Part shown: positions 11,290 through 56,978 of the stretch, one piece after another
Layout: each line of letters begins with the position of its first letter
How positions within the stretch are numbered: the first letter of the stretch is position 1
Assembly: GCA_030704615.1 (NCBI GenBank)
Contig: CM060733.1
Span: forward strand, 32,984,001-33,048,000
DNA length: 64,000 nucleotides
Reading direction: 5' to 3'
From: Takakia lepidozioides
Taxonomy: Eukaryota > Plantae > Bryophyta
Position numbers and translations under genes: made by a program
Notes under the pieces: generated by a model
What the model was told of the DNA's origin: nothing
Seen by the model: only the letters and a program-made list of their open reading frames with translations
Database searches by the model: none

Positions 11290-11905
11290 TGTCTTGCAGG
11301 TGGGGGCCGAGATATTGAGCTAGCCTCCTCGGAAGTACAAAAAAATGTCAAGAGACTGGTTCTTAGCACGAGATTCAACGCCCCATTTCCAAACGCTCAA
11401 GGCGTTGGATCAGGCCGTCAAAGATTGTGCTGGTGCGTTGAGGGTCCTCCCCGACTTACAGGCTACACTTCCGGATCAAGCAAGGGTCATTTTTGCCTAC
11501 AACATCTTCAAGGAGCGGTTTTCCTGCTCATCCAGTATTGAGGATGTATGGTAAGAATAGGGTTGAGGATATCACGGTCATAGGGGGAGAAGGACCTCCC
11601 GATGAAGGAGGTTCGGCAATGTTTTTTAAAATTACATATTGAAAGGCAATGTTTTGCGAATGGTAGGGTGGTACTACTCTGTACAATGGGGGCCCATTAC
11701 AGCCTACCAGCCACTTGCAAAATCCACCCCCACCCCCAATCCCAAACGAAATGAGGAATGATGCATTCTGGGAACGATTGATACAGAATAGAACAAAAAA
11801 GAGGGCACAATGGGGTTTTATTGATCCACATGAATTGTATTTGAAGCACGTCTATTGTGTTGATGGTGCAAACAAATCTATAGCCCTATGCCTTCTAAAT
11901 ACAAG

Positions 11906-18298: not shown

Positions 18299-19084
18299 AT
18301 GGCTGCGATTGTGGGGGAGACCTCACATGCAGCTGAGAACAATGCCAACAACAACAACGACACAAACAATGTGAATAACTTGGAGAATATGGACAAGCTG
18401 AAGACCAAGACCAACAGTTTGAGTAACTTGAACAAGAACATAAACCCCTCGGACGTGAAGAAGAAAAGAAAGAATAGCAAGACATACGCACATCTTATCC
18501 ACGACACCATAATTAGTCTAAAAGCTCGAAAGGGCTGCAGTGCAAGTGCGATTAGGAAAACCATTGAGAAGACTTACGCCTCCAGTTTGGGACCGAACTA
18601 CAAAAAAGTTGTTGGCTCCACTTTGAAGAAACTCGCGGCCGAAGGTAAGCTCATCAGAAATGGCCACAGCTTTCGTCTCGCTCCCAGTTTCAAAAAATCG
18701 TTCGCTCCCCCGACTACGAGTTTGCGTAGGCATCATCGTAGACATCGTAGACAAGGCCGACGGCGACGAAGACGCCGTAGGCGTGTCGGTCGAAAGAAGC
18801 GGCGGAGGAGGAGGAGGAGGAGGAGGAAGAGGTCAAGTCGAAGACATAAGAAAGGAAGGAGGAGGAGGAGAAGGAAAAGGAGGAGGAGGAGGAGTAGACG
18901 GAGACGTCGTAGTCGAAAAGGTCGAAGAAGGAAATGGATCAGAGATGGAATGCCACGACGTCGGCCGAGGAGAAGATCGAATGCCGAGGAAGCAGACGAC
19001 ACGAGTTTCAGCTTGAGTCGATCGGCGTCAGCTTCCCAACGCTCGGGTCGGGCTGGCAGACGCTCTGGAGCTACCTCCCAGTAA
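18299..19084 (+). CDS. PRM: Histone H1-derived protamine-like sperm nuclear basic protein (H15 winged-helix domain plus Arg-rich tail), intronless, 261 aa from the ATG at 18299
   Basis: Linker-histone globular domain KTYAHLIHDTIISLKARKGCSASAIRKTIEKTY..KKVVGSTLKKLAAEGKLIRNGHSFRL, followed by ~85 aa of poly-Arg clusters (RRHHRRHRRQGRRRRRRRRR...). A CT-rich leader lies at 18214-18248. The architecture resembles liverwort MpPRM. Confidence 0.9.
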   Translation: MAAIVGETSHAAENNANNNNDTNNVNNLENMDKLKTKTNSLSNLNKNINPSDVKKKRKNSKTYAHLIHDTIISLKARKGCSASAIRKTIEKTYASSLGPNYKKVVGSTLKKLAAEGKLIRNGHSFRLAPSFKKSFAPPTTSLRRHHRRHRRQGRRRRRRRRRVGRKKRRRRRRRRRKRSSRRHKKGRRRRRRKRRRRRSRRRRRSRKGRRRKWIRDGMPRRRPRRRSNAEEADDTSFSLSRSASASQRSGRAGRRSGATSQ

Positions 19085-21985: not shown

Positions 21986-24900
21986 TTATGGGCCCGTCAC
22001 TGACTTCTGAACAGCAACCCACACTTGCTTCTGTAACAACACCAACAACTGCAGCTCAGTACTTCCACAAAATGCAGCCAGAAACTGATACAAGTTACAA
22101 GCTTGCAAACTCATCTCTTTTGAAGAGTTACCAAGTGCTAAGGATTCATAAACTAGAAATCACTCAAACTCAGCTTCCCCTCAGCCACTTGTAGCTTAAA
22201 AGATGCTTTTACATACTTCATTGCTTCCAAGTGCTAGAGGACCTCCGCCTCTTTTGGCTGGTTTGCTAGCAAGGTCGATCACAGTGCCACCACCCTCACT
22301 ATCTTTGAGGCCTTGCTGACCATTTCGGTCACGTCGGGAACCTGGCTTGTAACTGCCACCTGCTTTTCAAGCAAGACAGTTGTTCAACATCTGACTCAAT
22401 TCATACAAATGCATTTACTCAATATATAAGTCAGATTTAATAGCACTTCTCTCCACGTCCTGACCAGCCATTTCTTACAGTAAAACATGATACTGCTGCA
22501 GGCATCTGAGAAATCAGACTATCCAAGCTGAACACTGGTACTTCTCATGCCTGGAACTGTTTCTGTGCACCCCTAATGAGCTTCCTAGCACAGAATTTCT
22601 AACTCCACAAATAGGTAGACCCAGAAACAAGTTACCTGGAACCTCATTCCAAAAGGACGATGCCTCTTGTTTCTTTCTGTCCTTCTCTACCGCTGAAGGG
22701 GTCACCTGCCGTTGGACTTCCCCATTCTCACTGGTTAGTCTCTCACCTTGGACTTTGACATCATTAATCACCCCATCCTTTTTGATGTCCCCATGATGCA
22801 CCACCTGCCGCTCCGGGACTGAAAGAACCCCCAAGGTTGAGCCCCTTACTCCACGAGAGGATCTGCTCCCTGCTTCACCAGATCGAGCTCTTCCAGCTGT
22901 AGTGCTGCTGAGCCCAGCTCCACTCCCAGTTCCTGCATAGTTAAGAGAGGTAGCTCAAATTCACTTGTACTTCTCCACATCTCCACATCTCTTCCCTCAG
23001 CTCAAGAAAACTGTGACTATCCTTGAGTCTGAAGTCTGAACCATACGGCCGTTATTGCCCCAAATGCATGTTATGGTGAGGCTTGTGGCTTTTTGAGATA
23101 ACAAATTCGAATTATAGAATATCACCATCTATTGACCAACTAAAGAAAACACCCATGCTGACCTGACCCGTGAGGAGACTCTGCACCCTGACTATCAGAT
23201 CCTGATCTCCCTCCATGTCTCTGATGGCTTCCCCTGTCCCCTTTGTCGGTCTTTGAAGCCACCTCCACTTCTGGCTGCAAGCTTGTTGGTGGCACAAGTT
23301 CGGACGATGTCACAGGCGCTGTTGTGGGCACCATGGCAATAGAAGATGGCACTACATCTGATCCTACAACACTGTCAGAGCGACGTCGTGGGGTCCAAAC
23401 AGGACGGTCGGGCCTGTCCTTGTTCCTCACACGCCTGGAGTCCTGGCGGTCTGATAGAGACCCAGTCGGAAATCCATCACTAGCAGACAAAGTGCTAGAC
23501 TTCTCCTCCGCATGAACTGGTGCACCACTCACATTGCTCTGTAAGAGCCCAGAATCAGCTTCTGACAGGGAGGGTGCCGGCAACAAGAGTGACAAAGGCT
23601 GGTCTTTGCTGGCCAAGCGAATAGACTGTGGCCGTGGGGGTCGCCTTCCTCCCCTTTCTGACTGGATCAGTGATTGCTGTGTTTGCATTGGTAGTTCCAC
23701 TTTGGCAGAGGCTGGTGCTGTGAGCTGCTGAGAGGCAGGTTGGGAATGGTGGTCCTTTGGTGAAGACCCACCCCGGGGTGATGGCCTTCCTCCAGACTCT
23801 CGGCGATGGTTCTGCTTGCCAGTGGAAGTGATCGACTCTGTTTCCCCTGGTGATGTGGCACGATATGACACCACTACCTGTTGTGGCTGCACAGTACCAG
23901 ATGTTACCTTTGAAGATGCTGGGGACCGGTGACGCTGGTTAGATCCCCCCACACTGCTGACGCTGCTATTTGACACAGGGGAAATTAGTTGTCCAACTTC
24001 CTGAACAAAAGACACAAGATGCAGAAAATTCTTTAGAAGTGAGACAACTAGTAAAAAATAAAGTATGACACCTCTCGGAAGAGTAAATTGTGGTGTCTCT
24101 TGACCCCAAAGGGCTACTGCCTTCCGGTGGGAAGGTGGACACCTTTGTGACACCATTCGGTGGATTGAACCCATAACACTTCCGAGGTGGTATGTGCCCA
24201 TTACCACTGGGCTACAACTTGGTTGTCGACAACTAGTAACTTCAATACAAAGCCAATGGAAAACCGCAAAATTCAAGAATGTCCAAATATGTGAAGAATA
24301 AATGTGAAAGATGAGGACATTAGAACCCCTACCCACAATCACTCATCCAACAGTGTCTATATATCAATGTGAGAGCCTAGTGAACTATGAACTCACATTA
24401 AGAGGTAGCCAAAGATTAAACAGTGTCTACTTCAAAGGTAATAACACACAGACAACAAGAAGGTAAAATCGAGAGTAAACTCTCGGGGCCATTATCTAAT
24501 AATATTTGCACACATCATTTACAAATCAGCAGTCATCAAAATGTCAATTATTTCACTTACAGCAAAAGATTCCTTATTTTTGTCCTTGGCAATTGACACT
24601 TGTTTCCGTCTAGACTCCCGCTTGCTTGCCTCCCTTGCATCTCCAATGCTGACAGTGTCCCCTGAACCTGCTGCAGCAGAAGGACCCTTACCAGATAGCA
24701 GCACCCTGGACCCAGACTGCTCTGTATCTGCTGTGACAATTTGCAGAGTTCCCCCTTCCGAGCCTGCAACAATGTAGTTGATCTACGAGAATAAAACACT
24801 TTGCAATAAAATGTCCCAAGGAAAATGCCAGTCACAGATGATAATGGTTCCCTGCTATCACAAAAAGTAAAATTATGTGTGACCAGGGCCTGCTTATAAG

Positions 24901-27900
24901 AATGATAGAGACATCAGGCAAACAACACATACCGATTGATGTTTCTATCGAATCCTTGGATGAGATCATGGTACGATCCTTGCTGAGCTCAACCGGGGGG
25001 TGGCCTGGATTTCCCTTGACGGATGAGACCGCAGCCACCACAGCCTGACGTACCAGCTTCTTTTCCTTGCCTTCAATTGATTCCTTTCTCTTCCGCTCAA
25101 TCAGCATCTCCCTTTCTCTGCGCTGTTGTTCTTCTCGAGGAGGGCCCGAACCATGTGTTGATGCCTCTTTGTTCAACATTGCTTTGTCGGACACAAACTG
25201 CACATTCGGGAGATGTTGAATGACATATGCATAGTACATTTACAACAGATATACAGCAATTATCTCAATCATCACCTCATACACAGAAAAAACTGACCAG
25301 TCTACCATCTAACTCAAGAGACAATTGGACTTACTGTCACGGTACCAGCCCGGGTTTTATCTGAGCTCCGTTTCTGGGATAGGTTGAATGTGGATGCAAC
25401 ACCTCCAGCTCGCGCAGCTAGCTTGGCACCAGTTGCCATCGACCTCTGGTTGAACAAAACAAATACAGTTTAATCAGCAGTGTCGACCAGTTGAGAGCTA
25501 CATTTTGACTCATTAGCCGTCATCCTGTTGAGAACACCAAATACTGATATCTGGAAAGAGAAGAAGATTACACTTCAGCGACAATATTACTTTCACCTCA
25601 TTGTCTGCTCCAACTCCTGCCCAAATACAAATATAGGACAGAGAGAACAGAAGCTACGACTGTTCAACCCACAAGTGCTTGTACTTCGGTCTCCAGATGC
25701 AACTATGCACATCTTAATTCTTCTACTCCTACCGTATGCTGTCTGTTAGTGTGTACATGTAGACAGGTGCAGTCAACTGCTATCCTTATCAATATCCTTA
25801 TCAAAAGTGCTTGCCTTTATTACCAACTGACATTGAGGGTATTGTATTAGTACTTCTTTGTCACAGCAAAGTGAGTCCTGTGCAGCTGAACCTTAGATAC
25901 TTTGACAGGGAGAGTGGTGCTAGCAGCAAGCCAGAAGAAACCTGAGGAGCAGATTTGGCTGCTCTTCGTTGACGTATAAATTCCATCAATGGGGTCACAA
26001 TCACCAAATCCTTGGTTCCCCCTGCAGCTGCAGATTCCCAGACAACATAAGGGAGGGAAACTTAACGCAAGCCCAACTAGCAAGAATGAAAACAGCCTAG
26101 ATATTCCCATCAGTACTCTTTCAACTCTCCTGAGGTCGACACGACCACAACCATGCTCCAGGTCCAGTAATGGAAGAGATCATGACAGAATCGCCAGAAA
26201 ACAAGACTCCTCGGTTAGATGCATGGAGCATACATAAACCAGCTCACAAACAACATAATTAGATGTAGACAAGCAAGATAGAAAATAGCTTAACCCTTCC
26301 TAGAGAGGGACGATCCTTCAAAAATGTCAACGTGTACCAAAATCTTCGAGGCAACTAGGATGACCCTTGAACTACAGCTAATTAAAGGTTATTTTCTTGT
26401 CTTTAAATAAAGGGGACTCATGCCACATGGATCACTGGCAATAAAAAGGTTGACTGCAATAGGGATGGTCGAAGAGTTGAGACGCATATCTTGTGCGAAA
26501 AATATCATGCAACAATGTGGAAGTGCAGGCTTTAACATACCTAGAGAAGCTGCCTTTTCAGCTTCTCTACGCTCCAGCTGCACCTCCGCACTGGGTAAGA
26601 ACTCTGTGGGTTTCCCCGACTGCTCCAAGAATGCCAAGTAGTCTGGATCTGTAACAAACCAGATTCCACCAGTGTTACCGTAGACCTACAGGGCCACACG
26701 ACCTAATAGGTAAGACAATACCTCGCAATCATGACCCCCTCCCCCACTTCCCAGCTATCCAAACGAAGCCTTCAAAGAACAAATACAGAACAGGAGAACA
26801 AATGAATCTCCCTCTGGGACTTGCCCTTTGCGATGGTTCCCTCCCGGATATCCTTTTTGGATCGAGGTTTTGGCACACGCTGATATGGGGCATATTCCAC
26901 AACTGCTTTGTACTGGGTCCCTGCGGCCAACAAAATTATCTATTCAAAAGACTAGCTGATAGTTGCCGAAGTGAAAAATCTTTGCTACTGCATTACTCAA
27001 AAAGAGATCCCAAACCCTAAGAGTGCAACATACCGAAAGCGAGCACCTTCCATTTTGGCCACAACCGACCATCTGTTCTTGCATGGTAAATCCAGGGGAT
27101 GATCTAGCATGCAATGGACAGTGACTTGAGATGCTGATCTACACAAACAGGAAAGGACATGGAAGCACACCTCTTTCGTTGACAAAAACATGGCCATCAA
27201 AATCATCATAGAAGTCGAGTACATCCTCAGGCTTCTTGAAGTTGATATATGCCCGTGCATGCACCTGCCGCTTATGGCTGCAGAGCAATCATAGAGGCCA
27301 ATGCACAACCCTAGTCAGCGCACAACCGATTGACCTGAACAAATCTCCTCCACCAGAAGGGCCTGAAATCTTCCTTAGAATCAGCTACATACATGTCATA
27401 ACACACTGTCACTTAGGTGTATAGTGTCTATTACGTGGAAGAATCCAACCACTCTAGCAACCCTCCTAAGAGCTTTCAAACTGTCTGCCCTGGGCTGACA
27501 TCCTTTTGAAACATAAGGGAGTTATACAACGCCTCCCATACTGTTCAAGCTCATTTACTACAAGTTGCTGTCATCAGCTCATACTGCTCACAAGGATCTG
27601 AACGTAGTCCCAAATGATAAGAGTGTGTATACATCCTTCCGGTTCGCCTGAACCACCCCTTCCTTTGAGCAGGTGCATGTGTGTGGGTAAAATATGACAG
27701 GTTCAGTGAAATAATCAACACTGAGATCAGGCAATCAAATAACGCACAAGCAGTCTTACAGTCACTCAGATATTGTGGAAAGTCAAATTTACAATATCCA
27801 CATAAAAATTCATGTGTGATTGCTGACAGCACCATGATTGTTTGGAGGGTGGGAACCATTTGTGGTTGCTGGGAAAAAATGAAATTCCGCAGCAATGGTG

Positions 27901-28654
27901 AGCTTCAATTGCGACTAGAACTTGAGGAACTGAGTGTCATAATATAGAAGCAAGTCACAGAGCCACCTTCCTAGACAATCCCATCGACAGTAATGTTGAA
28001 CTCTAGTTGCCAGTTAACAGCTATGGCTGTGGAAAGTTGTTCAGCTCTCATTTTTCAAAATATAATTCTCAGTGACAGAAGCTCACACCATTTCACTGAA
28101 GGCCATGAAGAAGAGCCCTCGAAATTCAAAGCATAATCATGTCCCCTAGTTGACATATCTTCATGAAACCCGAACCGAAATCCCTAGTGAAAGGCAAATT
28201 ATAGATGCAATCACAAGAGAAGGTGATGCGCGTTGATGATCGGCGAGAGTAGCCTCAGAACCAGACAATGTGTTGACCGCTGCCTTGACCATCCAGTATG
28301 CCATGAAATACACACTCTTCCGTCTTAGCAATTCACATTCTAACTGAGTAAACCTTCGTCCATTCTTCTCCCAGGCATAACACCCCAGAAATCAGTCCAA
28401 CATGACGGAGCTGCTCTCCACTGCAGCCTTCTACGTTCTGACACATAAGACAGAGCAAAAATCCAAACATCATTCTGCGAATATATGCATGGGAAAGGAA
28501 AGAGACGTTAATACCTGGATTTTCCTTGATGGAAAGCAATCCAGGTGTACGAACCGGCATACTTGGATGCAATTTGCTCTTGAAAAGCTGCAGGTGACAA
28601 TGTAGGGGGGAGATGGCGCAACACCACCTTGGTGCGCGCCTGCGTATCCTTCAT
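21986..28654 (-). CDS. UPF3: Nonsense-mediated decay factor UPF3 (Smg4/UPF3), 12 exons, 812 aa
   Basis: Exons 28654-28515, 27277-27171, 26920-26825, 26648-26541, 26027-25942, 25445-25335, 25197-24933, 24763-24561, 24000-23163, 22932-22636, 22359-22217 and 22030-21986 total 2439 nt with consistent phases. Motifs: RTKVVLRHLPP, RAYINFKKPEDV.DF...FDGHVFVNERGTQYKAVVEYAPYQRVPK, EGTIAKDPDYLAFLE, IVTPLMEFIRQRR, RRVRNKDRPDRPVW, EKQVWV..KS. An alternative in-frame ATG lies at 28717. Confidence 0.93.
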
Positions 28655-29199
28655 GGTGCTCTCCAGACACCGCCGCCTGCCGCTACTCCCTTTCCACTCC
28701 TGTGCCATGCGCACCATGTCGTCTCCACCTCCATATCCTCCTTCTCCCTCCCTTCCCCCTTCCTATCTCTTCTCCCTTCTCTCCTCTCTCCCCTCCTCCA
28801 TCGCTGTCACCATAGCCACGTTCCCCTTTTCCCCGAGCCTAGTCCCAGACCTAACCCCAAGTCAGCAGGCCCTGGATGTATGAAATCTGTTATCATCCGC
28901 CGACTACATTACCCTGGAGGCATATGGATGGAAACAATCCAGCTTCAAAGTCATTGAGTGGACAGAAGACATCCAACGTCCCCACCCTTACTTGACTTCG
29001 TCTTGATAGGCATTTCTTTCTCTCTGTTCGTAGTTTAAAAATACTGTTTAGTACGGTATTGTGAGCTGTCCGACGTCTTTACTATAATATAAGATATAAA
29101 TAAATAAACTTTGGATTTAGAAAAAAAAACAATTTGGACTGCCAAAAAGGAAAGGGGGGTGTCCGGAAGGAGCGATAGTAAGTTCACCACCTTTTTGCA

Positions 29200-30340
29200 A
29201 CCTTTCTGCTCTTTGGAGCATTCTGGTAAGCATTAACGCGCGCCCCTCCTCTTCTCCGTTGTGGCCTCCCTCCTTGAAATAGGTAGTGCAAGGAGGTTAT
29301 TCGAACAAATCCCCTTTGGTGGGCTCGGAAGCATGGAAATCTATCTGGGAGGCTTGGGTCAAAATGCGAGCTCATCTCTTTCAAAGAAGGCCGATCATTT
29401 TCGAGGAGGCTTCCAGGCAACCCCTCTTTGGAAACAACAACAGGAACTCGGAAGTTTTCCAAAAATGCTCGAAACGATGGGCTCCATGGAATGTAGCCAA
29501 TGTTAGCCACTTCTCTCACCTATGGGAAAATGGAGCGCTCCTCAACAGATCCATAGCATAGCCACCCCCAGCCTCTCATCCAAAAGATCCGTTGCAGGCT
29601 GGGACTCGCTCGTTCAAGATCTATCTTCAGACTGGATTTCCCTAGGTTCCTTTCCTGTCAACATCAGATCCCTGCCAGCTTGGATGGGACGCAAAGTGCA
29701 GTCAGGGTTGATTGCCCTTTATGCTACTTCAAGATCTGGAGACCTCCCCCACGGATGGAGCTTCCAGGTTATGGAATCGGGCACTCTTTTCTCCCCTGTG
29801 CAATGTCATCTTCAAGAGAATCTTTGTTATGCCATTCGGGTTATTTGCATGGCGACAGGAGAGGCCAACCCTTCGTTGGATCAGGACAGACACACTAACC
29901 CGTTTCTTAATTGGTTCCTTCGTGCTCCAATTTCTCGCATGCAATTCGATCCAGGCGAATGGTCCTGGAAGGACAAAAAGCATACCCCTTTTTTCAAATA
30001 CACGGTGAAACTTGGGGCTTCCCTTCTCAAGCCCTCCTCTCCTTTGGATTCCAAATGGACCCTGAAATGGTCTCACCTCACTGATTGCCCTTCTTCCTGG
30101 TATTGTGTTTGGAAGGATGTTTGGAGAAAAGACATGGCTTCTAAAATCAGTGGCTTCTTATGGAAATTGGTCAATAGAATCCTTCCTGTGAAGGCCCACT
30201 TCTCCGATGGCTCCTTGATTAGTGAATCTTGTAGGTTGCAGGCTTCGGAATCCATAGAGCATTGTCTCTTCGAATGCCCTATAGCGGCAGCTGTTTGGTG
30301 CAAATTTTGGCTTTCTATAATCAATGGAAATAGATTCCCA
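29200..30340 (+). mobile_element. L1-type LINE ORF2 3' fragment (post-RT region and zf-RVT), degenerate
   Basis: WKDVWRKDMASKISGFLWKLVNRILPV...C....ESIEHCLFECPIAAAVW is the plant L1 zf-RVT signature. Frameshifted upstream pieces (WKSIWEAW, RQPLFGN). Truncated at the Gypsy 3' end. Confidence 0.8.
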
Positions 30341-30937
30341 TGCCTTGCCCATCGCTATGGCGGCGAGAGAGGCCTCGGGAGGCTCGACTAGAAGAAGACG
30401 AGCCTGCCTACGTCTCACGTGGAGATAACCTCCCCACGTCCCAAGTGAGATTCGCCACCTCACTTGGCACATGGAACCAAATGAAGTCCCAATGCCAACA
30501 AAATACAAATATAAATGTATAATGTCCTCATTAGTTAGAAATAACTATTTCTAACTAATCACAAACAAAACCATGATAGCTGTTGTGCACCTAAGCATCA
30601 TGCCACAACATACATCGTTGTCCAACCACACTTCATAGCATATAGTCCTAGAAAGTCACGCCACAATCGCCCCCCTAGTTGGTGATTAGGTCCCTCTAAC
30701 ACCGGATAGCTTGCAAGTATCCACCCCAATAAGATCATCGCTTGGTCTTCAATCGCACAAGTCCCAACACCTAAAGTTGATAGATCAAGAGGTCGGGTGC
30801 AAACGTAGCCCCATCGTTAGTTGTCTTCATGCAATCCATGATCTTCAGCTGAGTATCCATGGCATTGAAGCCCCACTAGCTAGACCTTGGATCACTTGTC
30901 CGCCTCACCATTGTCATGTCCATTACCTCTGTCCAAG

Positions 30938-31072
30938 GCATCGTGGACACAACCATTCTCCGATAGGAACCTCCTCAAGTGGCGGTGTCAAGCATCTTGT
31001 GTGCCACCCCCTTGAGCATTTGTCACACACCAACATGGTTGCGGCGCCACCAGCATGCCCACATAGCATGCA
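30938..31072 (-). other. PHD finger at the integrase C-terminus
   Basis: CMLC...MLVCDKCSRGWHTRCLTPPLEEVPIGEWLCPRC is a complete C4-H-C3 PHD pattern with the typical PPL..VP.GEW.CP.C ending. Confidence 0.92.
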
Positions 31073-34000
31073 ACTCAACCCTGCAGGTACCACTGCAAGG
31101 TTAGGATCTATCCTCCCATCCACATGTGGAAGGTGACATGGCGTACAATTGCACACATGATCCTTATATACCATGTCATCTCGACCTTCCAGAATCAACA
31201 CTCCTGAAGGCAACACCTCCCTGACCCTTAAAATCACACGTCCTGCGGTGACATCCAAGGTCGTAGGTGCTGTATGCTGCAGATACATATAGTCCCCAGG
31301 GTAGAAATGCCGAACACTTGGCCAATATCCCCCTCCACGTATAGTGGCGTACTTCAATGTGTCTCGGTGTTGGGCAATAGCAAGGTTTTCAAAAGCCATA
31401 GGCGTGACTCTCTTGAACAACTCTGCCCGTTGGGTACATGTTTGTGTCCACACATCTGGATCATCAAGGTTGAGAACTATTACAGCCTCCCTGCGAATAA
31501 ATGCAAGCAAATCCGGCTCTCGGTCGAAGAGAAGAAAGTAAGATGAGAAGGAGGCAAGTGAAGCTTGTTTGCTGAACCTATAGCCCATAGCTAGCCAAGG
31601 CAGTTGAAGGTCCCAATCTCCTAGGTGTCCCTTCTGCAAACCGTACTTGCGCAAACCTTTCTTGACTATCTGAACAACTCTCTCCGCCAAGCCATCAGCC
31701 TCAGGATGATCCCGAGAAGTAGTGCGGTGATCTATCAAGGCTTGCTCACACAAAGCCTGAAACTCCCCCAAGAACTCTCTTCCCTGGTCCGTGAGTACCT
31801 CGGCTGGAGCACCAAAATGGCTAAGCACTCGATCTAAGAATGCATACGCAACCCCCTCACTTGCCTTGTCAGGCAATGCCACCAGTTCAATCCATTTGGA
31901 GAAGTGTTCCACCATCACCAGCACATACTTGTTGTGGCGAATCGTCAATGACAATGGGCCTGCGAAGTCAAGACTCCAACGATAGCCCAAACCCATAATG
32001 GGTAAAGGATGCAATTGTGGAGTAGGGGCGTTGAGAGAAGCCCGCACTCTATCACACACCATGCACCTTGCCACTAACTGTTGCACATCCGTGTGCATGC
32101 CCCGCCACCAATACTGCCCTTGCAGCAATCTATGAGTGCGCCGCACCCCAAAATGTCTCCACTCCTCATGGGCATGGCGTACCAATCGTGCTCGTTGTGT
32201 TGGATGAGGCACAATCCTCACTCGTCCATCCTCCCATACCCGGAGTAGGTGAGTCCCCTCCCACTTGAACATCTTAGCTCGTTGTAGGACCTGATCCCTC
32301 TCCTTAGCAGTCACACTGGCTGCTGTCTCTCCGGTACGAAGGTATGCCAACACTGTTGCATCTTCATGCACATCCTTAGCACCACCAAACTCCTCACTAG
32401 TTTCTGGATCATCATGCACGCTATCTATATGACCAATCGCATAGGATGGACCAGCTTGAGCTCCCATTGCTAGAATACACAAAAAGGCCGATGCATGCCA
32501 TCCTGGCACCATCTCCTCATCCGTCTCACCATGCCACCGAGCTCCAGTATCATCATGCTCGCTCGTGCATGGATTAAGACTCAATCCATCTGCATCCCGA
32601 TTGACAATACCGGCTCGATGCACCACCTGGAAATTGTACTCTTGAAGCATAAGTGCCCACCGTGCAAGCTTCCCTGTAAGCTTGTCTGACTCCATCAACC
32701 ACTTCAATGGCTAGTGATTTGTGACAAGGATGAAGAGATTGCCATAGAGGTAGCATCTGAAATGTGTCACTGCCCATACCGCAGCTAGACACTCCCCTTC
32801 ATAGGAACTATACTTCGCCTCGGCATCATTGTTCGAGCGGCTAGCATATGCCACTACAAACTCTCTTCCCTCATCATCTACATGTGTGAGCACTGCTCCA
32901 ATCCCCAGCATACTCTAATCCGTATGTAGCTGGAAAGGCCGCCCCCGAATAGGCCGCCTCAGAATAGGTGCAGAAGTCAATCGAGCCTTGAGTTCCTCAA
33001 AGGCTTCCTCCTGCTCCTCCTCCCACTGCCACTCCTAACCCACCTTGGTCAACTTGGTAAGAGCCTTTGCAATGCTGCTAAATCCCTCGACAAACCGTCG
33101 ATAGTAGTTTGCCAATCCCATGAAAGCACGAACTCTGCTCACATCCATGGGGCGTGGAATGCATGCAATGGCCTCCACCTTTGTCTGTTGAACACCCAAT
33201 CCTCCAGGGTATATCATGTGTCCCAGATACTCAATCTGATTGTGGAAGAACTTGTACTTTCCGAGGTGTAGTTTCAACCCGTGCACTCTCAAGCGCTCAA
33301 ACACCACCTGAAGGTGTCTCTCATGCTCCTCAACCGTAGTACTAAAGACGATGATGTCATCAATATAACACCGGGCGAAGTCTAGCCCCGCGAGAATCCT
33401 ATCCATGACCCTCTGAAACTCTACAGGAGCATTCTTCAACCCAAACGGTAAGAACCGCCATTGGTACAAACAATCCTTCCCATGTTGGTCAATCCCCCAG
33501 AATGCCGTCTTTTGCTTGTCAGCCTCTTTGATTGGCAACTGGTGGTAACCGGATCGCAAGTCCAATGTGCTAAACACCTTTGCATGCCCAATGGCATCAA
33601 AGATCTTCTCTGGAGTTGGCATGGCATATCTATCGGACTTAGTCTGACAGTTCATAGGATGATAGTCCCCACACATCCTTCTTTCTGTCCAATTGCCATA
33701 GATATCTTTCTTAGCTGGCATCACCGTTGTCGAGGCATACTCCCCGCCTGACAACTCCACCAATCCAGCTTCGAACAACTCCATAGTCCGTAACTGGATC
33801 AATGACCTCTCCATGTCACTATACTGGTAGGGCCTTCGAAAGATTGGCGTGTCACTTGCCAAATCAATACGAATCTCCTAACCCTTCAAACTCCCCAAAT
33901 CCTTCAATCCGAAGGCAAAGCAATTCCTATAAGCCCTTAGAAATCTCTGGATCCTCCATCTCTCTTCTCCGGTGACTGTAGGTCCAACATCTGGTTCCCA

Positions 34001-34444
34001 ATTGTCCTCAGTGACTGCAACCTTGGGTACACCATGCTTGGAGGTAGGAGACGAATCCTTTGGTTGCTAGATAGCAACCTTTTGGGCCTTGTCCGCCCAA
34101 TCTGACTGTGGCGTAGCCTCCACTTCCTCCGCCATAGCCACCTTGAGAACATCATCTGAGCAAGAAACATTCTCAACCTCTTTAAAAACCTTGGCCACCT
34201 TGGCCTCCAGCTGATCCTCAGTCCATGGCTCTCCCCACTCCTCATACTGCTGCTTGAGAGATCCAATGACTCTCTCTTTGCGTATCTCATCCCACATCTG
34301 CCATGGGTGTTTGCAACCCACAATCCTATGCTCGCCCCCACTCACTGCCTCAACCGTCCCGGTTGGCAGGGAGGATGCACTATCTAATGGGAGTGCAGAA
34401 GTAGCCATCAATGATTGCAATCTCCATTGCTCAGCCATGCAAAA

Positions 34445-35390
34445 GCTAATCACCCATGTCAAGCAATTTAGATCCATTGCCTGACCCAACACTTGGCGGC
34501 GTGATGCCTTCGAGAGAGCTGACACATTTGTAATGCCGGTGGCAAATCCCATTGCCCGCTCTCATCCACATTGGGCTCCACCTATTGCTGTAGCACACTG
34601 TCCCAAATCAACCCAGGACCATTGTCTCGGAAAGCATGAGATGAGGGAAAGCTCATGAGCGTAGGCAAGGCCGCACGTGGCTGCCCCACTCGATTGACCA
34701 CTGCTAGAGGTGGACGATCATCATGTCGCACTCTCTGTGGTTGCCTCCCTTGGTCCAAAATGCCCTCAACCGTGAGATTGGGTGGCCGATGAATGGAATC
34801 ATATGCTCTCTTGAGCAGCTCTGGTGGTGCAAGATTGGTCCACCACAATCGAGGTCGATGCGCGCGTGATCCCACCGCTGCTGCATCCAATAGCACCGCC
34901 AATCCAATCCAAGACCGTACCCGATGCACACTGGCCATTACCCTGGTTCGAGAATCCCCCATAAGAGGAACATTCTCCAAGATATAGCCTAGAGGTTGCA
35001 CTTGCCTCGTCTGCAAGTCCCGCAACACTCGCAACATCTCCCAAAACAAATGCGATCGTGCATCATGCAAGCCATTCCCATGACCTGCGGGAGAGTGTCA
35101 TTGGCAAGGCCATCCGGCTATCACCAAGTCAATGGGACCATGCCGCTGCAAATCATCCGCCCCCATCAAGGTAATGTCTGCTAGCAAGGCCTTTTAATAC
35201 CCTTGAACTGTTGATAGAGGCAACAACTCAGGATACCGGTGTGTGAGCAAGGCAATGTGGCGCATGGAAATACGTCGAGCAATCTCATACTTCTCCACAT
35301 ACAAGTACTTGCGTACTTTAATCCCTGCTTGCAACACTTCTGCAAGCCCAGTGCTCATGCCTCCAAACAGGTCTAGCAAACAAATCCCTG
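34445..35390 (-). pseudogene. C5-cytosine DNA methyltransferase domain (DNMT3-like) within the Gypsy pol
   Basis: Motif I LLDLFGGMSTG, II YLYVEK, IV DLVIAGWPCQ (35101-35130), VI YILENV, VIII LDAAAVGSRAHRPRLWWTNL, IX/X (E)RAMGFATG..RRQVLGQAMDL. Interrupted by stops at ~35194, ~35100 and ~34582 and by a frameshift. Confidence 0.9.
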
Positions 35391-38111
35391 AGTCAGATGG
35401 TTGCCAGGTAATGGGCACTGTGTCTAAAGGAGCTAATTCAGGAGGTCCAAGTGATGTCACTAAACTCCCCTCACTCACCAATGGAAAGGCCTCCCGCCAT
35501 GCTTGGTGCACACACTCGCCTTCTACTCGATGCAAATTCCCAACCGTACCCCACAATGGAATTTGCACAGGCACATGAGAAAGCAAATCAGCCTTGTATG
35601 CCAATTGTTTGTCCCATCAGGTGATGGCATATCATCTACATGGCTATTGCCCTCCAAGAGCTCACCACCCCAAACCACCACCCCTGAGAATGCAGCCAAT
35701 GTGGGCATCATGTTCCTATGATCCATCGCTACATTCCCAATAAACCGCACTGGGAGCAGTGCACATCGGCCATCTCCTGACTGCCATTCCAGCCTATATG
35801 ATGTCGTTTCCTCCCAAAAGTCCAAATAAAGCCCATGGGGTATAAACACAGCCCCACCAACAAGCACATCATAAGACATCGCGTCCGTAACAATGGCTTT
35901 AGCTCTCATGACTGAGCCGTCCATAGGATGATCCGGCTGCAATCGAATGAAGAGCTCATGACGTGTAATCCCTCGTGCCTTCTCTGAACCGCCCAAAGAT
36001 GTTTGAATTTGGAAAGGGCAATGCTCCAAATCCGCCTCTGTAAGGCCCAAGCCTGCAATTGCTGCTCTTCCCAACATCAATGGCTGTGCTCCCGAGTCCA
36101 ACAATACCCGTAGTGGCCTATACCTCCTCCCGGCTGGGCCACCCAACTGAAACACACCATCCTGATTGTCCACCAGGACTACCCCAGGAGTCACCATATT
36201 ACGCTCAATGGCTGGTCTAGCTGACAACTCCTGCAACCTTGCAGCTGCCGCTTGCCATGGTGCAGCTGTGGTTGTCTTCACCCTTGAGTCCATGACATCC
36301 ATGCACTGCACATTATCCGCTATCCCCGCAGACAATGCCGATGCATCACCACTCTCACAGAGTCTAGCTGCTAGTCTGAACATAGCAGCTGGCCGAATCC
36401 CCGCCATTGCAATGGTCATCGCAGAAAACAATGGAGCTTGGCAAACCACCGTAGCCGCCCCCAATAATGTACTGGCTGCACCCTGCTTTGCAACATCACC
36501 TACTGGCATTTCCCGAGCCACACCAACTCTCCTCACTGGTACTCGTGGCTCTACCTCTGACACACTTAGGTGAACGGGTACCATCGATGGCGTAGTTGGC
36601 ACTGTCTCAGCCAATGTGAAAGACTGTGGAAGCCTTGTATGTCGACTTGATTCCCCTCTTTGTGGATCAAAATCCACATCTGCTCCTCTTGGCTCAGGAG
36701 CACGCGTTGTTGCTCGAGTGACAGCAGCTACAGAGTCCACATGCAATGGTCTAGCAAGTGCAGCTCCACACATGAAGCCCATACCAATCTGGTCTTCCCT
36801 AGGCATAGGAGGCTGTGCAGGTGGGGCTTGAACCTCAGGCCTTGGAGCTGACGCCACATTAGTAGTGGCCATGGCAGCAAGACGTTGCTCTAGCTGGGCA
36901 AGCCTATCCACCATGCCTTGGTCATGACCTTGACCTTTGACCTTGTGCTCCTTGGTTTTGGTTACGACCTCCACCTCCTCTACCTCTCTGGGCTACATTG
37001 CCTCGTCCTCGGCCACCATTGTTCCCTTGGAGCTGGCCTGGACGTAGCTCAGGATGCAAGTCATAACAATGGGCCTCTTCATGCCCATACTTGCCACAAT
37101 GCCCACACTGTAGTTGTGTAGGCTGTGCCTGTGCCGACCCTTTGCCCCTCTCCGGGCAATCTCTCTTAACATGGGGTCCTCCACAATCCCAACATGACAC
37201 ACCCGACTGTTGTTGGCCTGAGAATGAAGGAAGTGACCTTTGCAATTGAGATCCTCTCTGTCATTCCCTGGGCTTTGCCCGAGCCCCCTTGTTGCCTTGA
37301 GCACGTTGGGGTAGTGGTTGTTGTTGGCCAGGAGCCCTACTTCGTTGTGTCTCCTTACCAAACCCCACCATGACCACTGGCTCCTCCACCATATTGAGCT
37401 CTATCATAGTTTGCAATTTTAAGGATTATGCAATTATTGAACCTTGCGCAATAGCGCGAATTTGACTTCTTCGTTTCAATCTTATTCTAAATATAAATAA
37501 AAACGACTTCCAGTTAGATAATCCTCAATGTTCTCAATGTACTTTAATAGTCCTTCCGCTAGACTTCTCGCAGTGGGATGAAATTAGTTCATCTGTGTGG
37601 TGTCCTCAATTCAATAACGCGCGATCGCGCGTGGTTCTGATGTTGCTACCGCTCAGAAGAATTTTCTTGGGATAATAGATGTCAGGATACTCTTATATGA
37701 TTGAAAGAACAAAGTCATGTATATGGATTCTGTTTGTCATGCTTAGCAACATCGTTGTTGCTTATAATCGGATTTTACGTTATTGGAGGGAAAATTGTGA
37801 AAAATTGTGGAAAATTGAAAATTGTCGATCGCGCGTTCTTTGAGTGTATCTTTCTGTACATTCTGTATCTGAGCACGAGTTCTTGATGATTCTTCCAGTG
37901 TGGTGGATTCGTGTTCGATGAAGGAGGAGAAGGAGATGGGACATACCGGACACAAGGCAACGCTTTCACCCTCCTCACAAGGTGAATGCGGAGCTGCGGT
38001 TATTATGACGAGACCTTCCGAAGGAGTTCGTGTTATATCATCTCCAGTTTCTACAATTACATCCACAGAGGAGCCTGACACCTACTCCCTGAATCAAACG
38101 ATCAGGACAGT

Positions 38112-38519
38112 TATTCACCAATAGGATATTTTTGCGACGTTCCTCCCGGGTCAGCAGCTTTAAGTTCTTTTCTAGAACAATACTGTGGAGGGTCTTCCGA
38201 AGATCCTGTAGCTGAAGTATCGGCGGAATCAAATGATTTCTGCACTATGTACCCTGCGTATACGCCAGATACCCAAGCTTATACACCCGGATCCCCAGAG
38301 TATACTCCCGTATCACCAGAGTACACTCCGGCATCCCCAAAGTATACACCCTCATCGCCAGGGTATACTCCGGGATCCCCAGAATACTCACCAATAGAAT
38401 ACTTTAGCCACCTAAGACCCGGGTTGGCTGCATTGGCCTCATTTTTGGCACAATACACACCTACGTCAACTGTATGTTCCGACCATTTGGAATCATCAGG
38501 CTCTCAGGAGTGTACTTGA
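38112..38519 (+). CDS. Ser/Pro/Tyr-rich ORF with RNA polymerase II CTD-like heptad repeats (probably part of a frameshifted ORF from ~37900)
   Basis: 21-bp repeats at 38259-38405 encode YTPDTQA YTPGSPE YTPVSPE YTPASPK YTPSSPG YTPGSPE YSPIEYF. The frame is open from 38112 (YSPIGYFCDVPPGSAALSSFLEQY). Confidence 0.7.
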   Translation, partial: YSPIGYFCDVPPGSAALSSFLEQYCGGSSEDPVAEVSAESNDFCTMYPAYTPDTQAYTPGSPEYTPVSPEYTPASPKYTPSSPGYTPGSPEYSPIEYFSHLRPGLAALASFLAQYTPTSTVCSDHLESSGSQECT

Positions 38520-39003
38520 ACCAGTTCAGAATTTCAACGTGGTTCCATCGAATACCCACAATAATCAGTAGGATCACCTTCTGGGGGTGTCCTGAATCAC
38601 CATAATATAGTCCTTCATCTCAGTTTTAGGCAGACATATATGATTGTACATTTAAACGTCAACGATGTCTCCGTTTTCGTTCTTCACTGTTGAATAATAA
38701 AGTATTCTTCACGATTTTTGAAACCAATTTAATGATCTTCAGCTTTTGAGATTTCCAGTTTAATTGTGACATTGATTTAATCCATTCCATTTATTCCATA
38801 TTGCAGTCACAGTTGAATGTCCCCCTGTTCCAGCTTAATTGTATGTTAGTTTCTTTCAATTCCATATCTTCCCAGTGGGATTCCCATATGTATATTGGCC
38901 TGACATCCGTAACATTATGATTTGTCTCAATCTTCGACCTTTACTCTCAATCCTGAAATAATGCCATGAGATATCTAATCCAGATAACATAATGTTGTGA
39001 TCC

Positions 39004-42000
39004 ATGTTCAGTCGTCAGTCAAACATACCGGCGGATTGCCTGGTTGGTGTATGCAAGGAGATATGTGGGGAGTTCATCTCACCAAAATCGCCAAACTTCA
39101 GCATAGACCACGTAACTTTGTATACTCTTAACCAGGCGATATCCGAGTGGGGAATAAATCCTGTGGGTGTACCTCCTGACCACCAACTGAAGTTTTCCTT
39201 CAAGATTGGAGCGGAGGTGAAGGAGCTTAATTATGGCTACGTTAAAGATGTTGAGATGGAGTCTGACGTGGAGAATCCAATGATGGTGGTTTTCATATTG
39301 GAGGATGGTAGAGCGAAGAAGACATCAACAGAAAACAACGGAGACGATGAGGCAGCGAAGGGGGCAAAGGGTAAAAGGAAACGGAAGTCCACGGCGGGAT
39401 CCTCTCAGACTGACAATGAAGAGGAGCAGCCAGCCGGCAAAAAGAAAAAGAAAGAAGAGCTCGATATTGTATTTATGAATAACAACAAGAAGCCAAAACC
39501 TAGCAAAAATTTTGACAAGAAGAAATGCGAGGCGATGAATCAAAGTCTGCAGAATGACTACAAAGACATGTTCCCTTTTGGGTTCAACCACATAATATCA
39601 ATTGACATCTCAAGGATGGAACTTGTTCCAAGAAGCATGGTGTATCGTCCGCTGAATATTAATCACAAAGATGAAGTCAAAGCCCGTCTGTACCAGTTGC
39701 GGGTTCTAGATACAAAACATCTCGTCTATCTGGCGCCGAGGAACAAACAGGTGCCAACCCAGGTGTCTGCGATGAAACCAAGGCATCAGAAGGATATTAA
39801 CAATTCAAAATTCTTCGTCATTGGAGGCCAGCACACAATTATGGCTGCAAAGGTATAGTACATCAACGTTTACCTCGCGCAATCGCGCGTTCTTATATAT
39901 TCTTCTCTGCTTCTATGAGAATCATCTTTCGGATATTTCTTTGCGTTTCCTCATTATCCTTCTCGCGCGATCGCGCGTACTTCTACTAGATGATTATATC
40001 AGATGCATCGACGACTTGTTTTGTAGAAATGCATAGCATGATAAGCAAGCACGCGTGATCGCGCATGCTCTTTTATAGTTCAATTCCATGCCGATGTAAC
40101 ATTTTCCAAATCAGGAACTCGTGGAGGAGATTACTGACCGGAGCAAAGGGACTACTACACCGAATGGCCATCAATTATTCTCTTGTCAGATAGCGATAAT
40201 CAATTGCTAAAGATTTCCAAGCTCCTGAACGACCCAAATAAAGCCCAAAAATTCGACACAACATTCCCGGAGAAAGTTGCTCACGCCAGGATGTACTATG
40301 AGTTGAGGGGGGAGCCCAGGAAACTCAACGATAACGTTTCCAAATCTGAAACCGTTCAGTGGAAGGTAATTATTCGGACTTCCTTTATTGTTTAATGTTT
40401 TGTTGTTCATTCACTAGAACTATGTGTCCCTGTTGTGTGTTGGCCTGACATGTTGTTTCTGTTGACCAGGAATTTTTGCAACCTACCACTTATATTGAAG
40501 TGCTTAGCGTTAAGGAGGCCATGAACCTTGGTCCTTTTGCGATGACAATGTTTGGTAGAAGTGGCAACAAGTGGTTCAGAGAGTGGTAGAAGGAAACCTC
40601 TTAGACATTAACGGAAGAAGCACAAGGGTGTACAATTGCAACTCACAAAATCTGCAGTCTGCAACTCCAGGGATTGAATGCCTTCAAGATGAAGAAGTTG
40701 CGCCAAAGAGTTTGGACTTGAAGATCTGCGTTCTGGTCCTTACAAAGGAAAAGCCCAAGATTCTCTGCCTGTCCATTACATCGCTTCGAATAAAGGACAA
40801 GCGTTTATTATCGATGATGTTATGGTGGTATTGGGATATGATGCCAGACAGCAACATCCAGAGCCATACACAAAAGCAGATGGCTCGAAGTGAAGAAAGG
40901 TACAAGTTCAACAAGTCGGAGTTTTTAGACATCATCCGATCGAAACTGGGCCAAATACAAGAAAAAGCAAGTAACATGAACATGAAGACCGAGAAAGTGA
41001 GTGACGCTTCATCAAATACTTGCTTTCATGCAAGAAAAGGTTGAAGACATGGAGAAGGAAATGGGCAACCTCAAGGATACATTCAGTCACATTACCAGTG
41101 CATTGGAGGGAAGCGGAGGTTCACGGATGCCAAAACACAGTTGAAAATTGTGAGAAGAGGGATTTCGATAACATCGCAATGGTGTTCGTCAACAACAGTC
41201 TGTGACGATGACTCAACTTTTTCATGCAAAGAAATTACAAGAATATTTTCGATGCTTCTTCGACAGCAAGCTGAGCCCCTATTATTGGTTTTTCTTCGCG
41301 ACGCAGGAGGTCCTCTTCCAATCTCGCTCGTACATAAGGTTGGCGAGGGGCGGACAAGTATATTCTCTTCAGGGTTGTATATTCCTGGAGAGTTCGACAT
41401 CCTTAAAAAAGACGAGGCGCCAAATCAGTTTCAATGCCTCGCAGTGCCTTATTACGTATTTCCGGCTATAGTTGCCCAGATTGAGAACCACGAGGAGCAC
41501 CTGCAGGGAGTGCTGATGTTCAGCCCCAGTAAACCAGTGATTTAGGCTCCGAAACCCTGAGCTCACGGAACACGAGAAAGACTGTGCCGCTTATGAACAC
41601 GAATTGCGGGCAGAGTCGAGCGACTACATTGCGTCCTTGTTCTGTGGTGAAGGGGATGGCGGCTGTGAACGTTTTTGGAGGCGTAATGTTAACATCGCTC
41701 TCCACGTAAGCATTGATTTCCATTTCCATTCCTATTCTATTTCCATTTCCATTTCGAAACAAATTTTGGAACCTCGCGCGATCACGCGTTCATCCTTTTA
41801 CCCACTGGTTTGGCATCTTTGCAGGCTAGGAAGTCCGTGTCCCCGATATAAACACAACCTGAAAATTATGCGCGAAATAATTGCCGCTAACTACACACGA
41901 CTCCCCTACACAGAATGAGGACAGAACTAGGTTGGTGATGACACATTGGAGGGTAGGAGACCCAACAGGCACAATGCGAAGGAAATGACGACTAAATGAC

Positions 42001-51302: not shown

Positions 51303-51700
51303 TATGACTACATTGTCTGTTGAGCACTGCCTACATGGAGAGGCTTCAGCGGGACACGTGCGCCACTGCGCAAGCGACACGTCATGCATTCGTCAGGGGA
51401 TCATATGACTATATGTCTGCAAAGTGATGCCTACATGGAGAGGCGACGGATGGACACGTGCGCCACTGCGAATTTGACATGTCACGACTTCTTGCCATGA
51501 TCATATGACTACATGTCTGCACAGTGATGCCTACATGGAGAGGCGCTAGCGAGACACGTGTGCTATGGCAGATTTCACACGTGGTGACTACATGACTCGC
51601 TCATATGACTACAGGGATGTCTACATGGAGAGTTGTTAGCGGGACACCTGTTGCACTTGAGATGTGACATGTGGCACACAGACAAAATATATGACTAGCA
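51303..51700 (+). repeat. Four ~100-bp subterminal tandem repeats of the CACTA element
   Basis: Units start atatgacta..tg(c/t)ctacatggagag..gacac(g/c)tg at about 51303, 51403, 51503 and 51603. Confidence 0.9.
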
Positions 51701-56478: not shown

Positions 56479-56978
56479 AGCCGCACCCTACCAGGACGTA
56501 ATGCCTGCCCACGAATGACGGCGGACATCTCCCGCCTAATGACACACCCTCCTCAAACCTAATCGTCACTCACTGCATGTTGTTTGCCTCTCTGTTTGTA
56601 CAAGTCGCAGCTACTCGCCCCCATTTGTGCTATGAAGCTTATGATCGCTGTAGGAAGGTTAGAGGATAAGGCAAATCGCAAGTTTAGTGGGTGGGTATCC
56701 AAAGTCAGGAACTAAACTCACCCATCTATCGACTGCTTGAACGTTGCTTCCACCTCCTTTATGGCAGCAATCCGGCGCTCTCGGAACTTCTCGTACTCAG
56801 TGAGAGGGACTGTCACTTCGAAGACCTTCCGCTTCACCATGGACACTCAGAAACGATACTTATAGTATACTATAGATATAGAAATAGCACATTGGCAGCT
56901 GGTGCAAAACTAGAGACAATGCACTGTGCGTAGCATGCAAAGAGGGAAGGGGTGACGTTCAAAGCATGTAGCGAACGG

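Follow-up and report, generated by a model that had tools for sequence, protein, structure and literature searches.

The window analysed in this study is a stretch of 64,000 nucleotides of Takakia lepidozioides (GCA_030704615.1, contig CM060733.1, positions 32,984,001 to 33,048,000), and it contains a decayed Ty3/Gypsy copy on the minus strand, from 37422 to 30354. The first-pass annotation had put the element at 30923..37390, which holds for its place, but the remnant extends further at the 3' end, to 30354. The features, in the 5' to 3' direction of the element, are as follows:

37036..37422, minus strand: gag, 3' half only, containing two CCHC zinc knuckles (tblastn, residues 226-354 of Marchantia P0004)
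35739..36131, minus strand: aspartic protease, DSG at 36098 (Asp_protease_2, E 0.014, below the cut-off)
34430..35388, minus strand: DNMT3-like C5 cytosine methyltransferase, motifs I-X unpermuted (PF00145, 47.7 bits)
34061..34069, minus strand: in-frame TAG followed by CAA CCA, the end of ORF1 (position conserved among relatives)
33038..33877, minus strand: reverse transcriptase (RT), YIDD at 33367 (RVT_1, E 8.6e-31)
32714..33025, minus strand: RNase H, interrupted by a stop (RT_RNaseH_2, E 6.2e-33)
31511..32215, minus strand: integrase in an open frame, combining an HHCC zinc domain with a D,D(35)E core (Integrase_H2C2 at E 1.5e-13, rve at E 2.4e-14)
30929..31081, minus strand: PHD finger at the integrase C-terminus (PF00628, E 5.3e-10)
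30670..30676, minus strand: polypurine tract (same G-run before repeat B in relatives)
30581..30667, minus strand: terminal repeat segment B, first copy (begins after the polypurine tract, as in relatives)
30572..30587, minus strand: slightly decayed internal att-att palindrome, CA of the right end, 2-base spacer, TG of the left end (matches the B1/A2 junction of 13 relatives)
30354..30578, minus strand: truncated second copy of terminal repeat segment A (limit set by a depth edge and loose ends at 30354)

The order protease, RT, RNase H and integrase is of the Ty3/Gypsy type, both in the window and in the relatives, and RVT_1, RNase H, rve, Integrase_H2C2 and PHD all score above their Pfam cut-offs, while the protease, a region matching its Marchantia counterpart at 57%, scores below. 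Pfam scans of the element found no chromo family, and the PHD finger is present instead. This copy has neither the left repeat nor the 5' half of gag: residues 1-225 of Marchantia P0004 had no match in the window by tblastn, a contig depth edge at about 37420 coincides with the 5' limit of the gag remnant, and no repeat pair was found within the window. At the other end, segment A holds a 30-base hairpin (30530-30559), and at 30581, the limit of segment B, the match to 32 contigs of run X1 breaks off, and these continue into unlike flanks (agreement 0.37). Stops interrupt the DNMT at 35196, 35100 and 34584, further stops lie at 33880, 33037, 32917 and 32713, and three frame changes occur near 37000, 35600 and 34570, one of them in the DNMT. 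With these seven stops and three frame changes the copy is dead, as had been claimed, and it is doubly truncated. The stop at 34069 does not belong to this damage; its position is conserved in the two-ORF subfamilies.

All the C5 methyltransferase motifs named in the first-pass annotation lie where it had placed them, on the minus strand, namely motif I LFGG (35370-35359), motif II YVE (near 35300), motif IV GWPCQ (35115-35101), motif VI ENV (34977-34969), motif VIII HRPRLWWTNL (34860-34831), motif IX ERAMGF (34561-34544) and motif X QVLGQAMD (34495-34472). When the segment was translated straight through, with X written at stops, PF00145 recognised it well above its cut-off of 22 bits (E 1.8e-12), so that the Pfam check proposed for the repaired pol came out positive for this family as well as for RVT_1 and rve. 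The best relative among solved structures (PDB) is DNMT3A (E 4.7e-13), and the family profile gives 73.6 bits for DNMT3A, 33.9 for HaeIII and 21.4 for DRM2. The structure model of a natural domain from a relative (L018, pLDDT 97) superimposes on DNMT3B with Z 29.4 (rmsd 2.5 over 268 residues), compared with Z 18.1 for MET1 and 18.0 for ZMET2; the closest folds are the DNA-specific DNMT3 and M.MpeI, ahead of DNMT2 (Z 21-22). Ranked against solved structures, the DNMT3 family appears nearest in sequence and in modelled fold, in agreement with the original description of a Gypsy element with a DNMT3-like domain. DUF3444, which host DNMT3 carries, is absent from the retrotransposon domain.

Fifty-one longer homologues were found, with best identities of 63-69% in Marchantia and Calypogeia and 55% in Sphagnum, and 189 of 400 metagenome stretches were confirmed as family members, the best 80 of which were fetched. 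Summed contig depth was about 90,000-113,000 over the DNMT vs. 63-111 in the flank, which is not a copy number, and two runs presumed to be RNA have contigs that hold parts of the protease and DNMT at about 87-90% identity, which does not imply transcription. Among 177 full DNMT domains, the catalytic C is kept in 175, the E in all 177, and the motif VIII arginines in 174 and 175. The DNMT dN/dS was 0.12 for the pair L062/L059, where dS is unsaturated, and 0.09-0.25 for the between-subfamily pairs free of saturation (17 of 36 pairs were saturated), while young dead copies gave a weaker signal (0.53 and 0.34). These values indicate that the family's DNMT domain has evolved under purifying selection. 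Its presence in many relatives, including Marchantia, Calypogeia and Sphagnum, indicates a family trait shared with the liverwort elements. The suggestion made from this one copy, that the lineage occurs in a land plant, is supported.

The DNMT tree (FastTree, 85 rows, two thirds of type B dropped) and the RT tree (a quick version, 96 rows, with roughly half of the unnamed rows of type B or without DNMT removed) have the same branching order around the window, and in the latter the outgroup branch (98) leaves all DNMT-bearing RTs together, with inner support unstarred. The previously suggested kinship with charophyte elements is supported by the ORF2 relatives and the RT tree, and the family may share one origin with the Klebsormidium element. 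Most of the best 120 ORF2 relatives are unnamed; the named ones include no vascular plant, which is therefore weak evidence. A scan of IMG/VR returned 17 phage-type methyltransferases at 27-44%, and a scan with the family profile returned none. A recent horizontal move out of liverworts or peat moss is not supported, as synonymous sites are near saturation between the window and all relatives tested; an older transfer would be possible.

Gag, protease and DNMT form ORF1, and RT, RNase H, integrase and PHD finger follow in the same frame past one stop. The DNMT had been described as lying inside pol; it does sit between protease and RT, but in the subfamily of the window it closes the gag-protease frame before the conserved stop. 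In the two-ORF subfamilies, 36 of the 37 linkers that stay in frame carry the stop at this site (L050 being the one without it); 15 of the 63 loci, with frameshifted linkers, were left out of the count. In L062 this single stop divides open frames of 1369 and 1047 codons. Its context is an exact CAR-YYA, like that of the window, in 6 of the 36, CAA followed by C-Y-Y in 29, which depart from CAR-YYA at the last base, and another one in the remaining case. CAR YYA is the readthrough signal of TMV (PMC2754532), and the context UAG-CAR-YYA is very probably that of a leaky stop, with RT and integrase produced via readthrough. A second subfamily (L075-L097) has no stop in 11 of 11 in-frame linkers, its DNMT being in the RT frame, and Klebsormidium P0271 is likewise without it. 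Because the conserved stop separates DNMT from RT, the DNMT is likely made at Gag level; since the second subfamily and P0271 lack the stop, such a supply would not be essential.

Paired LTRs had been expected in intact members, but the full-length relatives end in split repeats, arranged as A-coding-B-A-B or A-coding-B, and two whole LTRs flanking the coding region were not found, the arrangement being a permuted form of two LTRs. A-coding-B-A-B is complete in 6 relatives, and the window keeps the polypurine tract, B and part of A, but has lost its copy's own ends. The ends read TG...CA, and a 4-base target duplication is present in five of the six complete copies. None of the 21 left ends (18 distinct insertions) has B upstream, while the first B copy runs into the palindrome and A in 13 of 19 cases and ends straight in the flank in 5 of 19, which fits either another route or later recombination. 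Inserts of 18 bases resembling nearby sequence occur at 2 of 11 A/B joints. A putative self-primer, 11-16 bases complementary to the sequence after A, is present in 11 of 17 copies (control 0/2125) and absent from the expected place in the other 6; the complement begins about 27-33 bases after a TATA box and its sequence differs between two subfamilies. It should be noted that the end structures come mostly from two subfamilies, apparently of a few related peat metagenomes. In IMG/VR the att palindrome had 8 exact matches, all without element domains, so that the scan gave no circular form. The split repeats, the 4-bp duplications and the internal palindrome together suggest integration by an internal cut and end joining.

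The whole reading to which we lean, and which we hold to be moderately probable, is that the DNMT ending ORF1 is packed in the particle and methylates the element's new DNA. Ribosomes would pass UAG-CAR-YYA at a low rate, with a high probability that this leaves DNMT at Gag level and RT and integrase scarcer, and many DNMT copies would likely be packed into the particle alongside Gag. Tf1-like self-primed reverse transcription, a step taken from the relatives and not from the window copy, would together with the polypurine tract quite probably give a linear BA-coding-BA, the ends of which have no integrase signal. It seems likely that the integrase would then cut the CA-GC-TG palindrome of the left repeat in a staggered manner, that the new ends would be inserted with a 4-base duplication, and that the host would join the original ends, before insertion (as a circle) or after it, with A-coding-B-A-B as the product; cutting of junction palindromes by integrase is described for foamy virus and HIV-1 in the accessible text of PMC1180852 and PMC4372172. 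While extrachromosomal, the element DNA would, as we tend to believe, be methylated by the DNMT, and the methylation would most likely shield this DNA or let it pass for host chromatin while the extra joining takes place. PHD fingers have a chromatin-targeting property, and the one in this family likely steers the integrase to chromatin.

Other roles of the DNMT were weighed against this. It is possible, though unlikely, that it serves a switch resembling restriction-modification, marking one of two identical att palindromes and thereby confining the integrase to the left one; the CG of att would be methylated, and 5-methyl-C would mimic the T of the partner end, because CGACA at the right att corresponds to TGACA at the left att when the latter is reversed. 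This holds for the two well-sampled subfamilies and for L062. If so, methylation would be a required integration step and not camouflage. The left junction is always the opened one, CG is otherwise depleted in the elements (observed/expected 0.27-0.55), and DNMT and split repeats co-occur from Klebsormidium to bryophytes, all in favour of such a switch. However, timing alone could explain the left bias, because the left repeat turns double-stranded first in the established reverse-transcription scheme; in addition, the att CG decays after insertion at background, with 21 of 28 B ends still having it against a CG background of 0.14-0.17 per site, and spacer decay is not clearly faster than at other CHG sites.

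That the DNMT acts on host DNA, either at the insertion site or on other host sequences, which it would reach with the integration complex or by leaking out, is in our opinion rather improbable. A PHD-bearing integrase implies chromatin contact, the DNMT lies directly ahead of the integrase in chlorophyte relatives, and in mosses the host DNMT3 is a de novo methylase of heterochromatin (PMC6453930, accessible text), but in the subfamily of the window the stop leaves the DNMT with Gag, where it would be in excess over integrase, and the Klebsormidium methylome is described as plant-like, not reshaped (PMC5890265, accessible text). A non-catalytic or RNA-directed job, e.g., nucleic-acid binding in the particle, would suit Gag-level amounts, and the same text reports that the Klebsormidium domain gave no methylation in yeast, although its authors call the result inconclusive and human DNMT3B likewise gave none in that test; with C, E and R nearly invariant in 177 domains, and the fold nearest to DNA-specific DNMT3 and M.MpeI, above DNMT2, we regard this as very doubtful. 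The dead and truncated state of the window copy could suggest a one-off capture of a host DNMT3 cDNA, or an assembly artefact, but the chance of this is negligible: such a capture is excluded by the homologues, dozens of loci along with named proteins of several genera having the DNMT in this position, the DNMT and RT trees agree around the window, and DUF3444 is missing.

Methylation of the element's own DNA by a packaged DNMT is thus the reading we prefer. Why a transposon carries the silencing enzyme of its hosts has been an open question since 2018, with examples only from algae that are hard to work with; it becomes testable because close relatives exist in Marchantia polymorpha, a genetic model, where they are annotated as hypothetical proteins. 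The ends point to an element with a DDE integrase which does not use the ends of linear DNA. The lineage may have gone unnoticed because LTR finders that demand paired LTRs (the REXdb filter) would miss split repeats, and DNMT domains of elements can inflate DNMT3 counts in bryophyte genomes.

In the literature searched, with subscription journals mostly outside reach, no report of a DNMT-bearing retrotransposon from land plants was found, nor in the accessible text of PMC12344493, PMC11982613, PMC8566409, PMC6453930 and PMC7466625. The closest known element is KnitGypsy-Dnmt3 of Klebsormidium nitens (de Mendoza et al. 2018, PMC5890265, accessible text), which likewise joins a DNMT3-type domain to Gypsy domains, placing it between protease and RT, and has the DIRS-like order A-coding-B-A-B and a DNMT under purifying selection; its DNMT is in one frame with RT, whereas that of the window's subfamily lies on the Gag side of a leaky-type stop, and that text makes no mention of readthrough, self-priming, target duplications or an internal att palindrome. 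In K. nitens, KFL_009030040 (P0271) matches the window family in the order protease, DNMT, RT, RNase H, integrase. The hosts differ, Klebsormidium in one case and a land plant in the other, and the RTs of the two are not sisters in the quick tree.

Split direct repeats are also a property of PAT/TOC1-type DIRS elements; DIRS, however, have a tyrosine recombinase and no target duplication, whereas in the window family the integrase is of the DDE type, the ends are TG...CA and the target duplications measure 4 bases. SymbioDIRS-Dnmt3 combines split direct repeats with a DNMT3 domain, as here, and the SymbioDIRS domain was shown to methylate CG de novo (PMC5890265, accessible text). In Tf1/Sushi and the Tcn1 chromoviruses of mosses and club mosses, predicted self-priming replaces the tRNA primer within the Gypsy order, as in this family (PMC6317226, accessible text), which differs from Tf1/Tcn1 in having a PHD finger and not a chromodomain, a DNMT and split repeats; the RT tree is without Tcn1. 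In 2-LTR circles of foamy virus and HIV-1, integrase opens a palindrome of two att ends, as proposed here, but the viral palindrome arises from ligated ends as a side path (PMC1180852, PMC4372172, accessible text), while in this family it is encoded inside the repeat and is apparently the only att. Finally, host DNMT3 of mosses and liverworts has the same unpermuted DNMT3-type catalytic domain, followed by a C-terminal DUF3444 (PMC6453930, accessible text), whereas the window domain is intronless, without DUF3444, and part of a polyprotein.

Between about 37422 and 30923, on the minus strand, the window copy codes first for the 3' half of gag, which includes two CCHC knuckles, and then for an aspartic protease, a C5 cytosine methyltransferase, RT, RNase H, integrase and a PHD finger. 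Motif coordinates confirm the C5-MTase motifs that the first-pass annotation had placed between protease and RT, numbered by the usual scheme (I-X), and its description of the copy as dead agrees with our count of 7 premature stops and 3 frame changes. The copy lacks its left repeat and half of gag, and the right repeats end abruptly at 30354. Where the 5' part would stand, a different repeat (37424-39858, depth about 2,000 in run X1, a sequencing run of the same organism) holds two ORFs, one whose YTPxSP repeats resemble the tail of RNA polymerase II (E 0.0025) and one of 285 codons that matches no family; a LINE remnant (29507-30391, zf-RVT, E 4.6e-08) adjoins the truncated 3' end. On the plus strand, 11225-11295 holds a fragment of 55-70 bases from this family's RT start, 87-90% identical to 33828-33882. 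The surroundings include the following features:

516-878, host gene, TORTIFOLIA1-like exon
18251-19084, host gene, ORF with a linker-histone domain
23140-28762, host gene, UPF3
51314-51674, tandem repeat, 3-4 copies of a 100-base unit, 68-74% alike

The TORTIFOLIA1-like exon points to a moss as the likely host: across 13 matches, its identity is 71% with Physcomitrium, against 60-65% with Calypogeia and 58-59% with Riccia. A CACTA (En/Spm) transposon occupies 53018-61095 (Transposase_21, DUF4218, DUF4216), and on its opposite strand an ORF with an NIF/FCP1-like phosphatase domain (E 8e-17) lies beside a Transposase_24-like ORF. In run X1 the summed contig depth, which does not equal copy number, rises from 63-111 in the left flank to about 90,000-113,000 across the DNMT and reaches 246,000-632,000 across RT and integrase, changing abruptly near 30354 and 37420; this shows that the element is an abundant repeat, DNMT included.

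Read through with its stops set to X, the DNMT segment scored 47.7 bits against PF00145 (cut-off 22), so the lack of a PF00145 hit that the first-pass annotation had named as refuting did not arise. The closest solved structures are DNMT3A (E 4.7e-13) and DNMT3B/C, followed by bacterial enzymes and DRM2, and the family profile gives DNMT3A 73.6 bits, HaeIII 33.9 and DRM2 21.4. A structure was modelled from the naturally stop-free DNMT domain of the relative L018 (65% identity to the window's; pLDDT 97), and this predicted structure matched DNMT3B best, with Z 29.4 and an rmsd of 2.5 over 268 residues, followed by M.MpeI (Z 25.8), DNMT2 (21-22) and DNMT1, MET1 and ZMET2 (18-19). The catalytic C and E and two motif VIII arginines are retained in 174-177 of 177 full DNMT domains. 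The dN/dS of the DNMT was 0.12 in the single well-resolved pair of intact copies, 0.09-0.25 between subfamilies (non-saturated pairs), and 0.34 and 0.53 in pairs of young damaged copies.

Protein searches returned 51 longer homologues, many being Marchantia polymorpha "hypothetical proteins", with best identities up to 63-69% in Marchantia polymorpha and Calypogeia fissa and 55% in Sphagnum, as well as 164 clusters with E < 1e-30 among 1.84 billion representatives. Homologues in several genera carry the DNMT, which disposes of the earlier concern that other copies might lack it. The RT and DNMT trees agree near the window, where both give the order L062, L066 (two relatives), the window, and then L018 with Calypogeia, Marchantia and peat-moss-like copies. 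The DNMT stands between protease and RT in bryophytes, Klebsormidium, Closterium and Tetraselmis, and between RNase H and integrase in Scenedesmus and many further rows; proteins of the latter layout, from green-algal relatives (P0039, P0044, P0064 and some 60 more), cluster together in both trees. In two other Gypsy polyproteins (P0321, P0327) the domain between protease and RT is instead a Dam-type N6-adenine methyltransferase (PF05869, above cut-off), and a PHD precedes integrase; this is a parallel capture of another methylase at the DNMT's position. Three relatives with internal deletions (L041, L050, L086) keep gag-protease-DNMT and both ends, having lost most of RT, integrase and the polypurine tract, and are possible non-autonomous DNMT carriers.

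The first-pass annotation had the DNMT within one polyprotein; its place between protease and RT stands, but in the window-like subfamilies a conserved stop parts it from the RT frame. Among the best 80 of 189 confirmed metagenome loci, 63 span the DNMT end and RT start, and 15 frameshifted linkers were excluded; the stop lies 58-65 codons ahead of RT in 36 of the 37 in-frame linkers of these subfamilies. It is followed by an exact CAR-YYA in 6 and by CAA plus three pyrimidines in 29, the window stop (34069) reads TAG CAA CCA, and in L062 this stop alone parts open frames of 1369 and 1047 codons. UAG followed by CAR YYA is the readthrough signal of tobacco mosaic virus, working at about 6-10% in stable plants and higher in transient tests (PMC2754532). 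The DNMT is therefore probably carried together with Gag and protease, outnumbering RT and integrase. The stop is absent from all 11 in-frame linkers of the second subfamily (L075-L097) and from the Klebsormidium protein, and the stop is therefore a lineage variant.

Complete relatives are ordered A-coding-polypurine tract-B-A-B (A and B being segments of the split terminal repeat), start with TGTCATG, finish with CACGACA and show a 4-base target duplication in 5 of 6 copies. At their B|A junction CACGACA, 2 bases and TGTCATG adjoin, both integrase ends meeting around a CAGCTG palindrome; the same junction lies at 30587-30572 in the window, and 32 run X1 contigs part from the window sequence precisely where B ends, continuing into dissimilar flanks. 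B was found upstream of the left end in 0 of 21 cases (18 distinct insertions). The first B copy (n = 19) continues into A in 13 instances, reaches the contig end in 1 and stops in flank in 5, including L031 with its 4-base duplication. Two of 11 A|B joints carry 18-base inserts resembling nearby sequence, such as end joining can produce. No tRNA site was found downstream of left A at the relatives' left ends; in 11 of 17 copies the 11-16 bases after left A instead complement a segment lying about 27-33 bases past the TATA box. The complementary sequences of two subfamilies are unrelated to each other, and the control gave 0 matches in 2125 words. Self-priming is known in Tf1/Sushi and predicted in moss Tcn1 (PMC6317226).

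To hypothesize, primer site and polypurine tract would set a linear BA-coding-BA DNA whose termini lack TG and CA, and a staggered integrase cut at the left repeat's palindrome, with joining of the original ends, would yield the integrated form. This joining may occur earlier (in a circle) or later, in the chromosome, as the data fit both orders; junction palindromes are cleavable by retroviral integrases (PMC1180852, PMC4372172). We lean towards the putative enzyme methylating the element's own DNA in or near the particle. A bolder reading, that methylation picks which junction integrase cuts, seems rather unlikely. In its favour, the right end has CG where the reversed left end has TG in three subfamilies, though CG is depleted element-wide; against it, reverse transcription timing could give the same left-junction bias, and after insertion the att site (the integrase-recognised end) decays at the background rate.

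In the literature searched (most subscription journals lay outside its scope), no land-plant description of such an element was found. KnitGypsy-Dnmt3, with DIRS-like repeats, was described as a Klebsormidium-lineage acquisition by de Mendoza et al. 2018, where the isolated DNMT was inactive in yeast, an inconclusive result (PMC5890265), and the available text of a 2025 follow-up gives the range only as "streptophytes and dinoflagellates" (PMC12344493). The idea of a DNMT in Gypsy is already in print and the window copy is dead; the family, however, has members in a model plant, and the way it appears to integrate is out of the ordinary. Compared with KnitGypsy-Dnmt3, as far as the available text describes it, the moss and liverwort family adds a land-plant range, a Gag-side DNMT by putative readthrough, candidate self-priming and internal att sites.
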